Sequence record: PZ583739.1
Length of the DNA: 64,000 nt
Direction: 5' to 3' (one strand)
Source: a phage
The translations under genes were made by a program, and so were the position numbers. Positions 45,517 to 60,045 of this stretch are shown piece after piece; the first letter of the stretch is position 1; each line of letters begins with the position of its first letter. The notes below the pieces were generated by a model that did not search any database, was not told where the DNA came from, and saw nothing but the letters and a program-made list of their open reading frames with translations.

Positions 45517-47823
<2,307 letters not shown>

Positions 47824-47852: not shown

Positions 47853-49832
47853 ATGGCTTTATTATCTCCGGGCATTGAGCTCAAAGAAACAACGGTCCAA
47901 AGCACTGTTGTTCGTAACGCGACGGGTCGTGCGGCGCTGGTTGGTAAATTCCAGTGGGGCCCAGCTTTCCAGGTAACTCAGATTACAAACGAAGTTGAAC
48001 TTGTTGATTTGTTTGGTGGTCCGAATAATGAAACAGCAGATTACTTTATGAGTGGGATGAACTTCCTGCAATATGGTAATGACCTCCGTACTGTACGTGT
48101 TGTTAACCGTGACGAAGCTAAAAACGCATCCCCTATTGCTGGCAATATTGAAACTACCATCGTAACTGCTGGTACAAACTATGCTGTCGGTGATGTTATT
48201 CAGGTTAAACACAACCAGACTGTTGTTGAACCAGCTGGCCGTGTGACCAAGGTCGATGTTGATGGTAAAATTCTGGCAATCTTTATTCCTACCAATAAGA
48301 TTATTGCATTTGCTAAAACTATTAATCAGTATCCTAATTTGGGCAGTGCATGGACTGCAGAAGTTACGACCACTTCTTCCGGTGTATCTGGTACCATCAC
48401 TGTCGGAAAAATTGTTACCGATTCTGGCATTCTGTTGACTGAAGCAGAAAACAGTGAAGAAGCAATTACTTCTCTGGAATTCCAGGCATCATTGGCAAAA
48501 TATGCAATGCCGGGTGTTGTTGCTCTTTATCCTGGTGAAATTGGTTCGACTCTTGAAGTTGAAATCGTATCCAAAGCTGAATTTGAAAAAGGCGCAACTG
48601 CAAATCTGGATATTTTCCCCGGTGGTGGTTCCCGCGCTTCTATAGCTCGTGCAGTGTTTAACTATGGTCCTCAGACCGAAAACCAATATGCAATTATCGT
48701 TCGCCGCGATGGTGCAATCGTCGAAAACGTTGTTTTGTCTACTAAGCAGGGCGAAAAAGATGTTTATGGTAATAACATTTACCTGGATGACTACTTTGCA
48801 AAAGGTACTTCCAACTACATCTATGCAACATCTCGCAACTGGCCTGTAGGCTTCAGTGGTATCATCAATCTGTCTGGTGGTATTTCTGCAAACGATAAGA
48901 TTACCGCTGGTGATTTGATGCAAGGTTGGGACCTGTTCGCTGACCGTGAAGCTCTGCATATCAACCTACTTATCGCTGGTGCTTGTGCTGGTGAAGGTGA
49001 TGCGACCGCTTCCACTGTTCAGAAGCACGTAGTTTCTATTGCTGACGAACGTCAGGATTGCTTGGCATTCATTTCCCCGCCGAAAGGTCTGTTGGTTAAC
49101 GTTCCTCTGACCCGTGCAGTGGATAACCTGATTGACTGGCGTACAGGTGCTGGTGCATTTGATACTGATAACATGAATATCAGCACGACTTATGCAGCGA
49201 TTGATGGCAACTATAAATATCAGTATGATAAATATAACGACGTTAACCGTTGGGTTCCTCTGGCAGCTGATATGGCTGGTCTGTGTGCTCGTACTGATGA
49301 TGTTTCTCAGCCTTGGATGTCTCCGGCAGGTTATAACCGCGGTCAGATTCTGAACGTTCTGAAATTGGCTGTTGAACCACGTCAGACCCAACGTGACCGC
49401 ATGTATCAGGAAGCTATCAACCCGGTTGTTGGTTTCGCAGGTGGTGATGGTTTTGTTCTGTATGGTGATAAGACTGCAACTAAAGTTCCATCTCCGATGG
49501 ACCATATTAACGTTCGTCGTCTTACGAATATGCTGAAGAAAAATATCGGTGATGCATCCAAATATAAACTGTTTGAGCTTAACGATAACTTCACTCGTGC
49601 ATCATTCCGTATGGAAACTTCTCAATACTTGGATGGTATTCGTGCACTTGGTGGCATTTATGAAGGTCGTGTAGTTTGTGATACTACTAACAACACCCCG
49701 GCGGTTATTGACCGAAATGAGTTTGTTGCTAGCATTTATTATAAACCTGCCCGCAGTATTAACTATATACAGCTTAATTTCGTTGCCACTAGCACTGGTG
49801 CTGATTTCGATGAGCTGATTGGGCCACAATAA
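47853..49832 (+). CDS. 18: tail sheath protein gp18
   Basis: 659 aa, identical length to T4 gp18. Confidence 0.92.
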   Translation: MALLSPGIELKETTVQSTVVRNATGRAALVGKFQWGPAFQVTQITNEVELVDLFGGPNNETADYFMSGMNFLQYGNDLRTVRVVNRDEAKNASPIAGNIETTIVTAGTNYAVGDVIQVKHNQTVVEPAGRVTKVDVDGKILAIFIPTNKIIAFAKTINQYPNLGSAWTAEVTTTSSGVSGTITVGKIVTDSGILLTEAENSEEAITSLEFQASLAKYAMPGVVALYPGEIGSTLEVEIVSKAEFEKGATANLDIFPGGGSRASIARAVFNYGPQTENQYAIIVRRDGAIVENVVLSTKQGEKDVYGNNIYLDDYFAKGTSNYIYATSRNWPVGFSGIINLSGGISANDKITAGDLMQGWDLFADREALHINLLIAGACAGEGDATASTVQKHVVSIADERQDCLAFISPPKGLLVNVPLTRAVDNLIDWRTGAGAFDTDNMNISTTYAAIDGNYKYQYDKYNDVNRWVPLAADMAGLCARTDDVSQPWMSPAGYNRGQILNVLKLAVEPRQTQRDRMYQEAINPVVGFAGGDGFVLYGDKTATKVPSPMDHINVRRLTNMLKKNIGDASKYKLFELNDNFTRASFRMETSQYLDGIRALGGIYEGRVVCDTTNNTPAVIDRNEFVASIYYKPARSINYIQLNFVATSTGADFDELIGPQ

Positions 49833-49874
49833 GACTTTACTTCTGATTTAACTTGGGTTATAATGCGCGTATAA

Positions 49875-49882
49875 TATAAATA
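49875..49882 (+). promoter_or_regulatory. late promoter TATAAATA embedded in an inverted repeat
   Basis: gcgcgtat-aaTATAAATAcgcgc upstream of the HNH gene. Confidence 0.5.
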
Positions 49883-49899
49883 CGCGCAAGGATTTACAA

Positions 49900-50505
49900 G
49901 TGATTATTTCTAAATTTGTTGAAGTTAAAATACGAAATCATGCAAAATGGTGGAGTGAATACTTAGGTAAAACTCTAACATACCATGATGTAATTTCTGT
50001 TCCAGTTGAACAAATGCCAGATAATAGTAATAAAAAGATTGAGTGTTCCTGTGATGAATGTGGGGTACATTTTGAGCGCGGCATTCAGCTGCTTCGTCGT
50101 GTTGATAAACATTTATGTAAAGCATGTTCAAGAAAAGATATTGGACAAAAGAATGTTATTGCGCAAGGTGGTGTACCAAGACCATGGCAACGCGGTGAAA
50201 AACATCATAGCTGGAAGGGTAATAAGCGCGAATTCTATTTGTATGCTCAACGCGTTCATGCATTGACAAGAGCAAAACATCTAAAGAATATTTGGTCAAC
50301 ATGGGAAAATGCAGATAAGATAGGAAAATGTGGAGAAGATGGTGCATATCAACTTGACCACAAAGTTTCTATTGCATATGGATTTTATAATCACATACCA
50401 GAGACTGTTATCGCTTCGCTCAACAATTTAGAAATAGTCACTTGGGAATCTAATAGGTCCAAAGGAAAATCAAATAGTATTGACTTATGGGATATATTAT
50501 CCTGA
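49900..50505 (+). CDS. HNH homing endonuclease (freestanding)
   Basis: C-terminal QLDHKVSIAYGFYNH...NLEIVTWESNRSKG HNH motif preceded by Cys-rich zinc finger; GTG start; between 18 and 19. Confidence 0.7.
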   Translation: MIISKFVEVKIRNHAKWWSEYLGKTLTYHDVISVPVEQMPDNSNKKIECSCDECGVHFERGIQLLRRVDKHLCKACSRKDIGQKNVIAQGGVPRPWQRGEKHHSWKGNKREFYLYAQRVHALTRAKHLKNIWSTWENADKIGKCGEDGAYQLDHKVSIAYGFYNHIPETVIASLNNLEIVTWESNRSKGKSNSIDLWDILS

Positions 50506-50640
50506 CAGTAAATGTAATTAAGCAGTAAACCGTAGAACCATTATACAATGCTATAAATAAAAGCATATCATCGGTTCCACGGACTCCTCAGAGCTCCTCC
50601 AGCGACCTAAATACATTTATTGATGAATCATATTACCTAG

Positions 50641-50648
50641 TATAAATA
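50641..50648 (+). promoter_or_regulatory. late promoter TATAAATA (gene 19)
   Basis: Exact TATAAATA; a second copy lies at 50552-50559. Confidence 0.5.
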
Positions 50649-50700
50649 CATGCATCAGGGACGCGTTCGCGCGACCTGTGTCTATAAAGAGGATTCCTTA

Positions 50701-51192
50701 ATGGAGTTGACCGATATCACACGTGCTTTCGAATCCGGTGACTTTGCTCGTCCTAACCTGTTCGAAGTCGAAATCCCATTCCTGGGTAAAAACTTTGCTT
50801 TCCATTGTAAAGCAGCCCCGATGCCAGCTGGCATTGTAGAAAAAGTTCCGGTCGGTTACATGAACCGTAAAATCAACGTGGCGGGTGACCGTACATTTGA
50901 TGACTGGACTATTACGATTTATAACGACGATGCTCATAAAGTTCGTCAAGCAATTGTTGATTGGCAAAACCTGTGTCACGGTATGACTAACGAAATCACT
51001 GGTGCAGCTCCTGCTGATTATAAGAAAACCGCTACTGTCCGCCAGTTCCATCGTGATGGCAAGACCATTACGAAAGAAGTTGTTATTACCGGCATGTGGC
51101 CAACCAACGTTGGGGAAGTCCAGATGGATTGGGACTCCAATAATGAGATTGAGACGTTTGAAACAACGTTCGCAATTGACTGGTGGGAATAA
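50701..51192 (+). CDS. 19: tail tube protein gp19
   Basis: TRAFESGDFARPNLFEVEI matches the T4 gp19 N-terminus; 163 aa. Confidence 0.92.
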   Translation: MELTDITRAFESGDFARPNLFEVEIPFLGKNFAFHCKAAPMPAGIVEKVPVGYMNRKINVAGDRTFDDWTITIYNDDAHKVRQAIVDWQNLCHGMTNEITGAAPADYKKTATVRQFHRDGKTITKEVVITGMWPTNVGEVQMDWDSNNEIETFETTFAIDWWE

Positions 51193-51249: not shown

Positions 51250-52821
51250 ATGGCAGGTTTTAACACAATACTAAATTTTCTTAAGCCTTGGGCTAAAGAA
51301 GATGAACAAGAATATAAGCAACAAGAAAAAAATAATTTAGAGTCAATGACCGGGCCGAAGTTTGATGATGGGGCTCGTGAAATTGAGTCACAAGAACAAA
51401 ACGTCCCGTATAATGCATTGATGCAACAGATGTTCGGGAGCAATGAACCTGAAGTAAAAAATACCAGGGAATTAATTGACACCTACCGCAACTTACTAAA
51501 TAATTATGAAGTTGATAACGCAGTGCAAGAAATTGTGTCTGATGCTATCGTTTTTGAAGACGGTAAAGATGTTGTAGCTCTTAACCTTGATGCTACCGAA
51601 TTTAGTCAGAAAATTAAAGACCGAATCCTCGAAGAATTCTCGGAAGTCAATAACCTCCTTAATTTCGAGCGCAAAGGTTCTGACCACTTTAAACGTTGGT
51701 ATGTGGATTCTCGAATTTTCTTCCACAAAATTATCAACCCATCAAAACTTAAAGATGGAGTTCAAGAACTTCGTCGCCTTGACCCAAGACAAATCCAGTT
51801 CATCCGTGAAATCGTTACACGCATGGAAAACGGTACAAAAATTGTCGACGGTTACAGAGAATATTTTGTATACGATACTGGCCATGAAAGTTATTGTGCC
51901 GATGGTCGTATATATGAAGCAGGTACTAAAATAAAAATTCCTCGTGCGGCGATTGTATATGCGCATTCTGGATTACTCGATTGTTGTGGCAAGAATATCA
52001 TCGGATACTTGCAACGAGCAATTAAACCTGCAAACCAATTAAAACTATTAGAAGATGCTTTAGTCATTTATCGTATAACTCGTGCCCCAGACCGCCGAGT
52101 CTTTTATATCGATACCGGGAATATGCCGTCTCGTAAAGCAGCAGCACACATGCAACATATTATGAATACGATGAAAAACCGTGTCGTATATGATGCAACC
52201 ACGGGTAAAATCAAAAACCAACAGCACAACATGTCTATGACAGAAGACTATTGGTTGCAACGTCGTGATGGTAAAGCAGTCACCGAAGTTGATACTCTCC
52301 CGGGTGCGCAAGGCATGTCGGATATGGACGATGTTCGCTGGTTTAAGAACAACCTATATCAGGCTCTCCGAATTCCATTATCTCGTATCCCTAATGACCA
52401 AAACAGTGGTGTTATGTTTGATGCGGGCGCGACAATTACTCGCGATGAATTGAATTTCTCTAAATGGATTCGACAGCTACAGAATAAATTTGAAGAAGTT
52501 TTCCTCGACCCACTTAAAACCAACCTTATCCTGAAAAAAATTATTTCAGAAGAGGAATGGGAAAAGGAACTAAATAATATTAAAGTTACGTTCAACCGTG
52601 ATAGCTATTTCACTGAAATGAAAGATGCAGAAATCATGGAACGCAGAATCAATATGCTAACGATGGCTGAACCGTTTATCGGTAAATATATTTCGCATCA
52701 AACGGCTATGAAGGATTTCCTCCAGATGTCTGATGAAGAAATTAATCAAGAAGCTAAGCAAATTGAATTGGAGTCCAAAGAGGCTCGTTTCCAAAACCCT
52801 GAAGAAGAAGAGGATTTCTAA
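51250..52821 (+). CDS. 20: portal vertex protein gp20
   Basis: 523 aa; synteny. Confidence 0.9.
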
Positions 52822-56579: not shown

Positions 56580-56600
56580 TCCTAGATTAAGTTAAATAAA

Positions 56601-56630
56601 AAGGGACCCTTGAGGTCCCTTTCTTGTTTT
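56601..56630 (+). terminator. hairpin terminator after gp23
   Basis: gggacccttgaggtccc followed by a T-rich run. Confidence 0.6.
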
Positions 56631-58302: not shown

Positions 58303-58330
58303 AAAGGGACCTTCGGGTCCCTTTATTTTT
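58300..58330. terminator. bidirectional hairpin terminator between gp24 and rnlB
   Basis: aaaaagggaccttcgggtccctttatttt between convergent genes. Confidence 0.6.
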
Positions 58331-60015: not shown

Positions 60016-60045
60016 AAAAACAAAGGGACCCGAAGGTCCCTTTTT
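60016..60045 (-). terminator. hairpin terminator after hoc
   Basis: gggacccgaaggtccc flanked by A and T runs. Confidence 0.55.

Follow-up and report, generated by a model that had tools for sequence, protein, structure and literature searches.

Is the open reading frame (ORF) that separates the tail sheath and tail tube genes of some T4-like phages a resident gene or a mobile one, and are the repeats and GC-rich stretches around it traces of its insertion? We addressed this question at the gp18-gp19 junction of the phage in sequence record PZ583739.1, in a stretch of 64,000 nucleotides (nt) that we call the window. The ORF, gene 19.1, encodes a protein of 201 amino acids and starts with GTG, as an initial annotation of the sequence had it, and all the sequence features named there are present where it placed them (table 1). 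Our comparisons make it probable that 19.1 is a free-standing homing-endonuclease cassette lodged directly after the gp18 stop codon. Over positions 49700-50800, identity to the window is 99.9% in Escherichia phage DK-13, 99.6% in vB_EcoM_RZ and 94.8% in vB_EcoM_VR7. These three phages belong to the genus Gaprivervirus (Straboviridae, Tevenvirinae) and, judged by sequence similarity, the window comes from a T4-like coliphage of this genus.

Gene 19.1 is optional and occupies a single junction

We found full-length matches to 19.1 in 6 of approximately 34 Gaprivervirus records (five phages and the rearranged DCP80), including DK-13, RZ, TH57, VR7 and the oddly assembled DCP80 itself. About 24 others, such as VR25, VR20, SP18, TH44 and UPEC01, lack the gene and align to the window with a clean deletion-like gap of about 665 base pairs (bp). 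The gene is therefore present sporadically among close relatives, between two conserved genes. The initial annotation had proposed a mobile cassette and had named universal conservation of the arrangement as the observation that would speak against it. The comparison with T4 and its relatives shows no such conservation, and the mobile appearance of the locus is borne out.

The strongest evidence for mobility is the sliding-window comparison of near-isogenic genomes. VR7, which carries 19.1, and VR25, which does not, are 99-100% identical in flanks of 1.5 kb and differ only across 49700-50620. Their identity runs through gp18 to about position 49670 and resumes at 50621 through gp20. The window and the gene-free TH44 form a second pair of this kind, in a gp18 background that is 75-87% identical to that of VR7. 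Hence, the same cassette sits in two lineages, each with a gene-free twin. The cassette starts at the first base 3' of the gp18 TAA, and the alignment with the element-free VR25 breaks exactly there. The tract linked to the gene is common to all gene-carrying Gapriverviruses and absent or different in the gene-free ones. Besides the ORF and a 5' control region, it contains a unique patch and a variant copy of the 18-19 spacer's first half.

The junction is occupied by different alleles in different phages. In the same genus, VR26 has another member of the family (36% identity) at the same junction, differently placed in the spacer, and there are three different 19.1 alleles at this position within the genus. 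Among Tequatrovirus, 70 records have a T6-type gene and others have an RB5-type mosaic, while the gene is missing from T4 and most others. Immediately 3' of the gp18 TAA, T4 has 9 nt (TACGGTGCA) and T6 a cassette of 645 nt. The RB5-type mosaic has the 5' and 3' ends of the T6 type and a different N-terminal half: near-identity between the two covers the 5' leader, ~30 nt at the start of the gene and ~200 nt at its end (the putative nuclease domain), and the N-terminal and middle parts are unrelated in sequence. The half presumed to bind DNA thus seems to have been swapped.

The association with this locus extends beyond coliphages. All the homologues that we inspected directly follow the sheath gene (T6, RB5, VR26, QL01, vB_EcoM_005, S16, Merci, 92A1, the Acinetobacter phage AbTZA1 and the Sinorhizobium phage phiM7). 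When we surveyed gp18-gp19 junctions in IMG/VR, 8 of the 77 were enlarged and all eight contained a member of the 19.1 family; the remaining 69 spacers measured 24-204 nt. The window protein is 97.5% identical to VR7 gp19.1, 59% to T6 ORF19.1 (deposited in 1994) and 49% to the QL01 protein.

Table 1. Features of the gp18-gp19 junction and its surroundings in the window.
Feature	Position	Strand	Remarks
gp17	45988-47820		local gene order
gp18, tail sheath gene	47853-49832	+	from the ORF list; annotated as tail sheath in DK-13 and VR7
Gene-linked tract	49833-50620	+	in all gene-carrying Gapriverviruses
Early-type (sigma-70) promoter, predicted	49835-49864	+	-35 CTTTAC at 49835-49840; 17-nt spacer after the next base; -10 TATAAT at 49859-49864
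Outer helices of the read-through RNA, predicted	49844-49906	+	49844-49848 with 49902-49906; 49851-49855 with 49897-49901
Perfect inverted repeat	49864-49888	+	9-bp arms TGCGCGTAT (49864-49872) and ATACGCGCA (49880-49888); 7-nt loop AATATAA
TATAAATA late-promoter box no. 1	49875-49882	+	covers loop and 3' arm
Shine-Dalgarno AAGGA	49888-49892	+	7 nt 5' of GTG; kept in five cassette versions
Gene 19.1 ORF	49900-50505	+	GTG start; 201 amino acids; between gp18 and gp19
Long imperfect hairpin of the 18-19 spacer	50506-50622	+	outer arms 50506-50520 and 50608-50622
TATAAATA no. 2	50552-50559	+	apical loop of the spacer hairpin
GC-rich patch ACTCCTCAGAGCTCCTCCAGCGACC	50583-50607	+	unpaired in the predicted fold; inside the divergent block 50589-50620
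TATAAATA no. 3, native gp19 late promoter	50641-50648	+	predicted start ~50654; identical in the gene-free Gapriverviruses examined
Hairpin CAGG-GA-CGCG-UUCG-CGCG-A-CCUG (gacgcgttcgcgcgac), predicted	50656-50678	+	100% conserved with or without the gene
gp19, tail tube gene	50701-51192	+	Shine-Dalgarno AAGAGGA at 50687-50693
gp20	51250-52821		local gene order

The protein is a probable nuclease under strong purifying selection

The 19.1 protein appears to have two modules. The N-terminal half contains the four cysteines of a zinc ribbon (C51, C54, C73 and C76, encoded at 50050-50127), which would serve as the DNA-recognition module. The C-terminal half contains the residues D153-H154, N176 and N185-R-x-K188 (50356-50463), which would form a beta-beta-alpha-metal nuclease of HNH type in a D-H...N...N variant. 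The four cysteines, D153, H154, N176, N185, R186 and K188 do not vary among 22 relatives, whose identity ranges from 39 to 98%. In 16 distant relatives that match the C-terminal half only, L-D-H, G161, N176-L, W182, N185 and K188 are still invariant. In the AlphaFold model (pLDDT 84), a strand at 150-154 ends in D153-H154, N176 precedes a second strand (177-181) and N185 lies within a helix (182-188), so that the predicted topology is the beta-beta-alpha-metal layout. Both hallmarks of HNH enzymes can be recognised: a catalytic His that closes the first strand after an Asp corresponds to D153-H154 in the 22 close and 16 distant relatives, and a central Asn followed by a metal-ligand Asn or His in the next helix corresponds to the invariant N176 and N185. 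The HNH domain of Cas9 and the Gme and GVE2 HNH nicking enzymes share this layout, with the first strand closing in the Asp-His pair, the Asn before the second, and the helix Asn nine residues further on, followed by R-x-K.

We searched for known domains with the protein, with the family alignment and with an alignment of the C-terminal part only. Pfam returned a weak, sub-threshold match to a treble-clef zinc finger (E = 0.1), NCBIfam returned no match to 19.1, and sequence and profile searches of the PDB retrieved only zinc-ribbon look-alikes. One of the 22 family members reached the Pfam model HNH_4 (E = 0.078), and the only Pfam family found in ten distant relatives was DUF7487, in their other domains. 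The protein does match PHROG 5104 (E = 1.7e-76), which is listed as of 'unknown function'. As no standard profile recognises 19.1, the HNH label relies on the conserved motifs and the predicted fold. The initial annotation had given this label outright; on the present evidence an HNH-type nuclease of the D-H...N...N variant is probable.

The protein is under selection. The copies of the window and VR7 differ by 22 synonymous and 4 non-synonymous changes, a ratio of non-synonymous to synonymous divergence (dN/dS) of 0.04, and 19.1 is therefore under strong purifying selection. Its GC content is 35.8%, compared with 44-46% in gp18 and gp19. At E <= 0.001 this large family has 3894 cluster representatives, and its C-terminal domain is elsewhere joined to other N-terminal modules.

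We also considered the F-CphI/Endo VII (DHHRN) family, because of a weak match to a PHROG 'endonuclease VII' (E = 0.0013) and because the F-CphI paper mentions VR7. We rejected this assignment: the DHDH and Arg signature is missing from 19.1, in which the central Asn is present, and the VR7 gene in that paper is gp6, which is distinct from 19.1.

A predicted early-type promoter and a stem are conserved upstream of the gene

The 5' control region of the cassette combines a putative early-type promoter with a perfect hairpin. The promoter scored 10/12 in a consensus scan, and the pattern TTTAC-N18-TATAAT occurs once in the window, where 0.11 occurrences are expected. The boxes fit the early-promoter consensus of T4, in which GTTTAC occupies -36..-31 and the -10 box -12..-7 (PMC1524935). 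The predicted early start is at about 49871, within the 5' arm of the hairpin.

To see which of these elements are kept, we compared five versions of the region (window, VR7, DCP80 and the Dhakavirus QL01 and UP19). All five share an identical stem, GCGCGTAT/ATACGCGC, and an identical adjoining AAGGATTT, while the loops differ (AATATAA, GATATAA, GTTAATAA and ACACA). The -35 and -10 boxes are kept in DCP80, QL01 and UP19 while the spacer between them varies at many positions, leaving the pattern (C/G)TTTAC(T/A), 17 nt, and TATAAT immediately 5' of the stem. The late-promoter box behaves differently. The initial annotation had placed a late promoter inside the palindrome, and the TATAAATA box does lie there in the window. 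It is present in the hairpin only in the window and VR7; DCP80 has AATAAATA, which matches at seven of eight positions, and QL01 and UP19 have nothing similar. The late box is therefore lineage-specific and is not what selection keeps, and a late promoter within the palindrome is not a property of the cassette, whose stem is 100% conserved regardless. These comparisons indicate that the conserved promoter of the cassette is the early-type one, directly upstream of the stem, and that the late box is incidental.

The position of the predicted starts has consequences for the RNA. The spacing rule for T4 late boxes (-13..-6; PMC1524935) puts the start from TATAAATA no. 1 at about 49888, just past the stem. 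With starts at about 49871 and 49888, neither transcript would contain the hairpin, and the late one would lack the 5' half of the structure. An RNA reading through from the gene 18 promoter (47816) would contain all of it. In this read-through RNA, the predicted fold (-21.9 kcal/mol, z = -2.8) has outer helices that enclose the hairpin, with the GUG start codon drawn into the pairing. The outer helix is ACTTG/CAAGT in the window and CTTTA/TAAAG in QL01 and UP19, i.e. three two-sided changes in five pairs; this covariation involves two independent lineages and a one-base shift of register relative to the start codon.

The stem sequence itself was found only together with gene 19.1. A search of IMG/VR with the stem returned only QL01, and an Rfam search of 49700-50800 retrieved no known RNA family. 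Stem-loops directly after gp18, sometimes with TATAAATA inside, are nevertheless common in phages with and without 19.1. Examples are GGCTCTCTATAAATAAAAATATAGAGAGCC in AbTZA1, GCCGATATAAATAGCTATATCGGC in two other phages (L052 and L090) and the CUUCGG hairpins of T6, S16 and 92A1. The palindrome is thus ordinary punctuation for such genomes. The window has nine perfect 9-bp hairpin repeats with loops of 3-10 nt, against about three in simulated sequence, and 20 copies of TATAAATA, against 5.2 +/- 2.4 expected. All 15 plus-strand copies of TATAAATA lie within the late-gene block, in the orientation of the late genes.

Apart from this, we observed that the TATAAATA region of the gene (49872-49888, TAATATAAATACGCGCA) and the late-promoter region of gp19 (50638-50654, TAGTATAAATACATGCA) match at 14 of 17 positions. 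The box in the loop may derive from the gp19 promoter or could recombine with it.

Most of the downstream spacer is native to gp19

Two further TATAAATA motifs and two GC-rich stretches follow the gene, as the initial annotation reported, and it had read them as a remnant and as possible scars. The GC-richness of both stretches is purely local, since windows of 100 nt there have 37-40% GC. The spacer of gene-free Gapriverviruses (~200 nt) already contains both TATAAATA boxes, a 10-bp inverted repeat, the stretch GGGACGCGTTCGCGCGACC and the gp19 Shine-Dalgarno. The inverted repeat (CCGTAGAACC/GGTTCTACGG) surrounds the first TATAAATA box, and GGGACGCGTTCGCGCGACC is 100% identical there. T4, whose 18-19 spacer is gene-free and 116 nt long, also has two TATAAATA boxes, each beside a hairpin. 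As the downstream boxes and gacgcgttcgcgcgac are shared with gene-free relatives, they belong to the native control region of gp19 and are not scars. The gacgcgttcgcgcgac hairpin starts two bases past the predicted gp19 late start, and would therefore be the 5'-terminal stem-loop of the gp19 message.

The spacer is predicted to fold into a long imperfect hairpin, whose core stem pairs CCGTAGAACC (50530-50539) with GGTTCCACGG (50573-50582). The same architecture, with other outer-arm sequences, is predicted in the gene-free VR25, VR20, TH44 and SP18. The outer arms come in three alleles (the VR25 type, the VR20/TH44/SP18 type and the type of gene-carrying phages) and complementarity is kept in each, which suggests a selected RNA or DNA structure. 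The opening part of the first GC-rich stretch, GGTTCCACGG, forms the 3' side of the conserved core stem, where the window differs from DK-13 and VR7 by one mismatch, at 50578.

Only the patch at 50583-50607 can be tied to the gene. A BLAST search with 50575-50625 matched the seven gene-carrying records and no others. In these sequences the patch is co-inherited with 19.1 and has no recognisable origin. Hence, one part of the supposed GC-rich remnant is indeed linked to the gene, and the other, gacgcgttcgcgcgac, is the same in relatives that lack it. The linkage in 7/7 records adds a co-inherited flanking tract to the otherwise near-identical alleles with and without the gene in VR7/VR25 and in the window and TH44. 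Target-site scars were not found either: the window contains no direct repeat or target-site duplication flanking the cassette.

Other junctions have features of their own. In the Dhakavirus UP19 (L021:1846-1880), the last 8 nt of gp18 (TAGTATAA) recur directly after the 19.1 cassette, before the native spacer, and this repeat resembles a microhomology or target-duplication junction. QL01 (L015:1321-1345) keeps only the TTAA of it. On the other side of the cassette, the last ~130 nt of gp18 (49698-49832) exist in two synonymous versions, a CGCAGTATTAACTATATACAG-type and a AGGTCGATAAATTATATCGTG-type. The AGGTCGATAAATTATATCGTG-type ends of VR7 and VR26, which have different 19.1 alleles, are 96% identical, and QL01 is similar. 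We considered this block as a general immunity site and rejected it, because the window carries the gene without the block. From the sequences compared, the variants are local mosaicism of a marker gene beside the 19.1 element.

A homing cassette and its alternatives

The locus has the testable features of free-standing homing genes as reviewed in PMC2988022 and PMC2993671, and a homing cassette probably accounts for it. In a mixed infection with a gene-free relative, the enzyme would nick or cut the relative's DNA close to the 18/19 junction. Candidate sites are the divergent block at 50589-50620 and the gp18-stop/spacer junction that the cassette interrupts. The cassette would then be copied out of the carrier, along with part of its flanks, by T4-type recombination-dependent repair, and the carrier genome would be protected since its own site is interrupted or altered. 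Expression of 19.1 would stay at a low level, apart from the very abundant late message of gp18. For this, the cassette would supply its own early-type promoter, with a start within the 5' arm of the hairpin, and the lineage of the window would add a late TATAAATA box with a start immediately 3' of the hairpin. In RNA that reads through from gene 18 the whole hairpin would form, with the outer helix pairing with the weak GUG start codon. The silenced species would here be the abundant late gp18 message and not an early one.

Several observations weigh against this explanation. Some concern the nuclease: no curated HNH profile matched 19.1 in Pfam, NCBIfam or PDB searches (phmmer/hmmsearch), Foldseek of the model against the PDB gave no significant match (the top one is the Cas9 HNH domain, E = 0.3), and hhalign with a Cas9 HNH sequence aligned the D-H motif, but at a probability of only 1.9%. 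Others concern transfer: the synonymous divergence (dS) between the window and VR7 copies of 19.1 is 0.21, so that this is not a very recent arrival, and the 3' end of gp18 in the window (CGCAGTATTAACTATATACAG-type) resembles that of gene-free phages. As regards translational silencing, the inner stem ends one base 5' of the Shine-Dalgarno and does not cover it, and the helix that reaches the GUG has only 5 bp, backed by two independent lineages. Finally, we found no publication in the searchable literature on the gp19.1/ORF19.1 family or on homing endonucleases at the sheath/tube junction.

The cassette could instead be moved or lost by homologous or microhomology recombination between promoter-plus-stem-loop elements, with no part for the nuclease. 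Such shuffling has been described for the promoter-early stem-loop (PeSL) cassettes of RB49 and phi1 (Arbiol et al. 2010, PMC2839356). The 5' region of 19.1 has their full layout before an optional ORF (PMC2839356): stop codon, AT-rich stretch, -35, -10, stem-loop, Shine-Dalgarno and start codon, with the early-type boxes and the adjacent stem-loop between stop and start as in PeSL. A second stem-loop with a promoter lies directly downstream of the gene, the TATAAATA region of the gene resembles the gp19 promoter, and the UP19 repeat looks like a microhomology junction. PeSL elements, however, occur in many copies in hyperplastic regions and can serve each other as recombination partners, whereas the 19.1 control region is a single copy in a conserved late module. 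Its exact promoter pattern occurs once in the window, so that there is no repeated cassette family on hand for recombination. The stem also differs (GCGCGTAT instead of GGGG...CCCC), and some versions of the 19.1 loop contain a late-promoter box. Moreover, shuffling leaves unexplained why a single family, alone in the survey, is found at one junction across genera as far as Acinetobacter and Sinorhizobium phages, and why its nuclease motif is under strong purifying selection. We consider this explanation unlikely.

A variant of the homing explanation gives the palindrome another role. I-TevI represses its own gene at its late promoter. By analogy, GCGCGTAT/ATACGCGC might be an operator bound by the nuclease for autorepression, with the block 50589-50620 as its recognition or cleavage site. 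The palindrome overlaps both predicted transcription starts, and the block may be intact in gene-free phages and rewritten in carriers. This operator is a speculative proposal with a low probability; if true, the sheath/tube junction would house a homing system that regulates itself and whose immunity determinant is mapped.

It is less likely still that 19.1 is an old accessory nuclease that does not home, serves the phage (by degrading competitor or host DNA, or by processing DNA) and has been lost repeatedly. The constant locus, the strong purifying selection, the age indicated by the dS of 0.21, and the size of the family, with its C-terminal domain joined to other N-terminal modules, would all be expected of such a gene. 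It does not account for near-isogenic pairs with and without the gene in two backgrounds, for three alleles at the junction within one genus, for the mosaic of N- and C-terminal halves between the T6 and RB5 types, or for a GC content below that of the neighbouring genes. Repeated precise loss should also leave remnants, and there are none in the gene-free spacers that we examined.

That 19.1 is a zinc-ribbon DNA- or RNA-binding regulator without nuclease activity, with D-H...N...N coincidental or structural, is very improbable: its profile matches are to zinc-finger and zinc-ribbon families and to no HNH model, but D-H, N and N-R-x-K are invariant even in distant relatives that have no zinc-ribbon half.

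Relation to known mobile genes

The homing cassette that we favour is of an ordinary kind among phage mobile elements, and would not surprise a specialist of those of T4. Free-standing phage homing genes and control by promoter and stem-loop are both well-described categories. Like the T4-type seg and mob genes (including SegF/SegG in intronless homing and mobE of Aeh1), 19.1 is optional between conserved genes, patchy even among near-identical phages, accompanied by a co-inherited flanking tract, and encodes a small protein that we read as a two-domain nuclease. They also share a weak start codon and a promoter-plus-hairpin upstream (PMC2988022, PMC2993671), and translational control by a promoter within a hairpin is documented for I-TevI, segB and mobE (PMC2988022). 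In contrast to seg and mob, 19.1 has no detectable sequence relation to any curated HNH or GIY-YIG model, and it sits in the core late structural module and not among early or nucleotide-metabolism genes. The RNAs silenced by its hairpin would be late read-through ones, and not early or middle ones.

The closest named relatives are T6 ORF19.1 and VR7 gp19.1, which are of the same family, at the same junction and with the same GTG start, and whose annotation does not go beyond 'hypothetical protein'. In T6 the cassette lacks a promoter of its own and its hairpin is of the CUUCGG type, while that of the window has another stem, an early-type promoter and a late box.

If 19.1 homes, it represents a homing-endonuclease family overlooked by current domain libraries, which miss it because PHROG 5104 has no assigned function. 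The family is present in GenBank, where some automatic annotations say 'HNH' or 'homing endonuclease'. Its place, from coliphages to the phages of Acinetobacter and Sinorhizobium, is one fixed junction within the structural module that is best conserved among T4-like phages. The natural near-isogenic pairs (VR7/VR25 and DK-13-like/TH44) offer a clean system for tests of intronless homing and marker exclusion. There are also practical consequences, as 19.1 would drive local mosaicism in gp18 and gp19, both of which are phylogenetic markers.

Annotation of the locus and neighbouring elements

Several GenBank records lack an annotation of 19.1 or give it a wrong start. RB5 (KM606995) and RB10 (KM606999) have a homologue without any annotation. 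In S16 (NC_020416) the gene is annotated from an internal ATG (321 nt), although the match starts at a GTG and covers 615 nt. The GTG start is the likely cause of these apparent annotation errors. In DCP80 (PQ671644; 140,978 bp, 30 kb shorter than its relatives), unrelated reverse-strand ORFs and a DNA primase begin ~30 nt into gp19; this is probably a misassembly or a rearrangement with its breakpoint at the 19.1 locus.

In the late region downstream of the 19.1 locus, the window has a repeated stem-loop family. Its three hairpins share the arm AAAGGGACC and have the loops CTTGA (56600-56622), TTCG (58303-58324) and CGAA (60022-60043).

The Dhakavirus vB_EcoM_005 has a second optional ORF, between gp19 and gp20 (L017:2747-3328), annotated as 'HNH endonuclease'. 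Its Pfam match is to SegE GIY-YIG only, and weak, and not to HNH, and hhalign found no similarity between this putative nuclease and 19.1. Its motif GEGNPMFGK resembles the 19.1 linker GE(N/K)H(P/H)xW(N/K), and we take the two to be, possibly, a NUMOD3-like DNA-binding motif.

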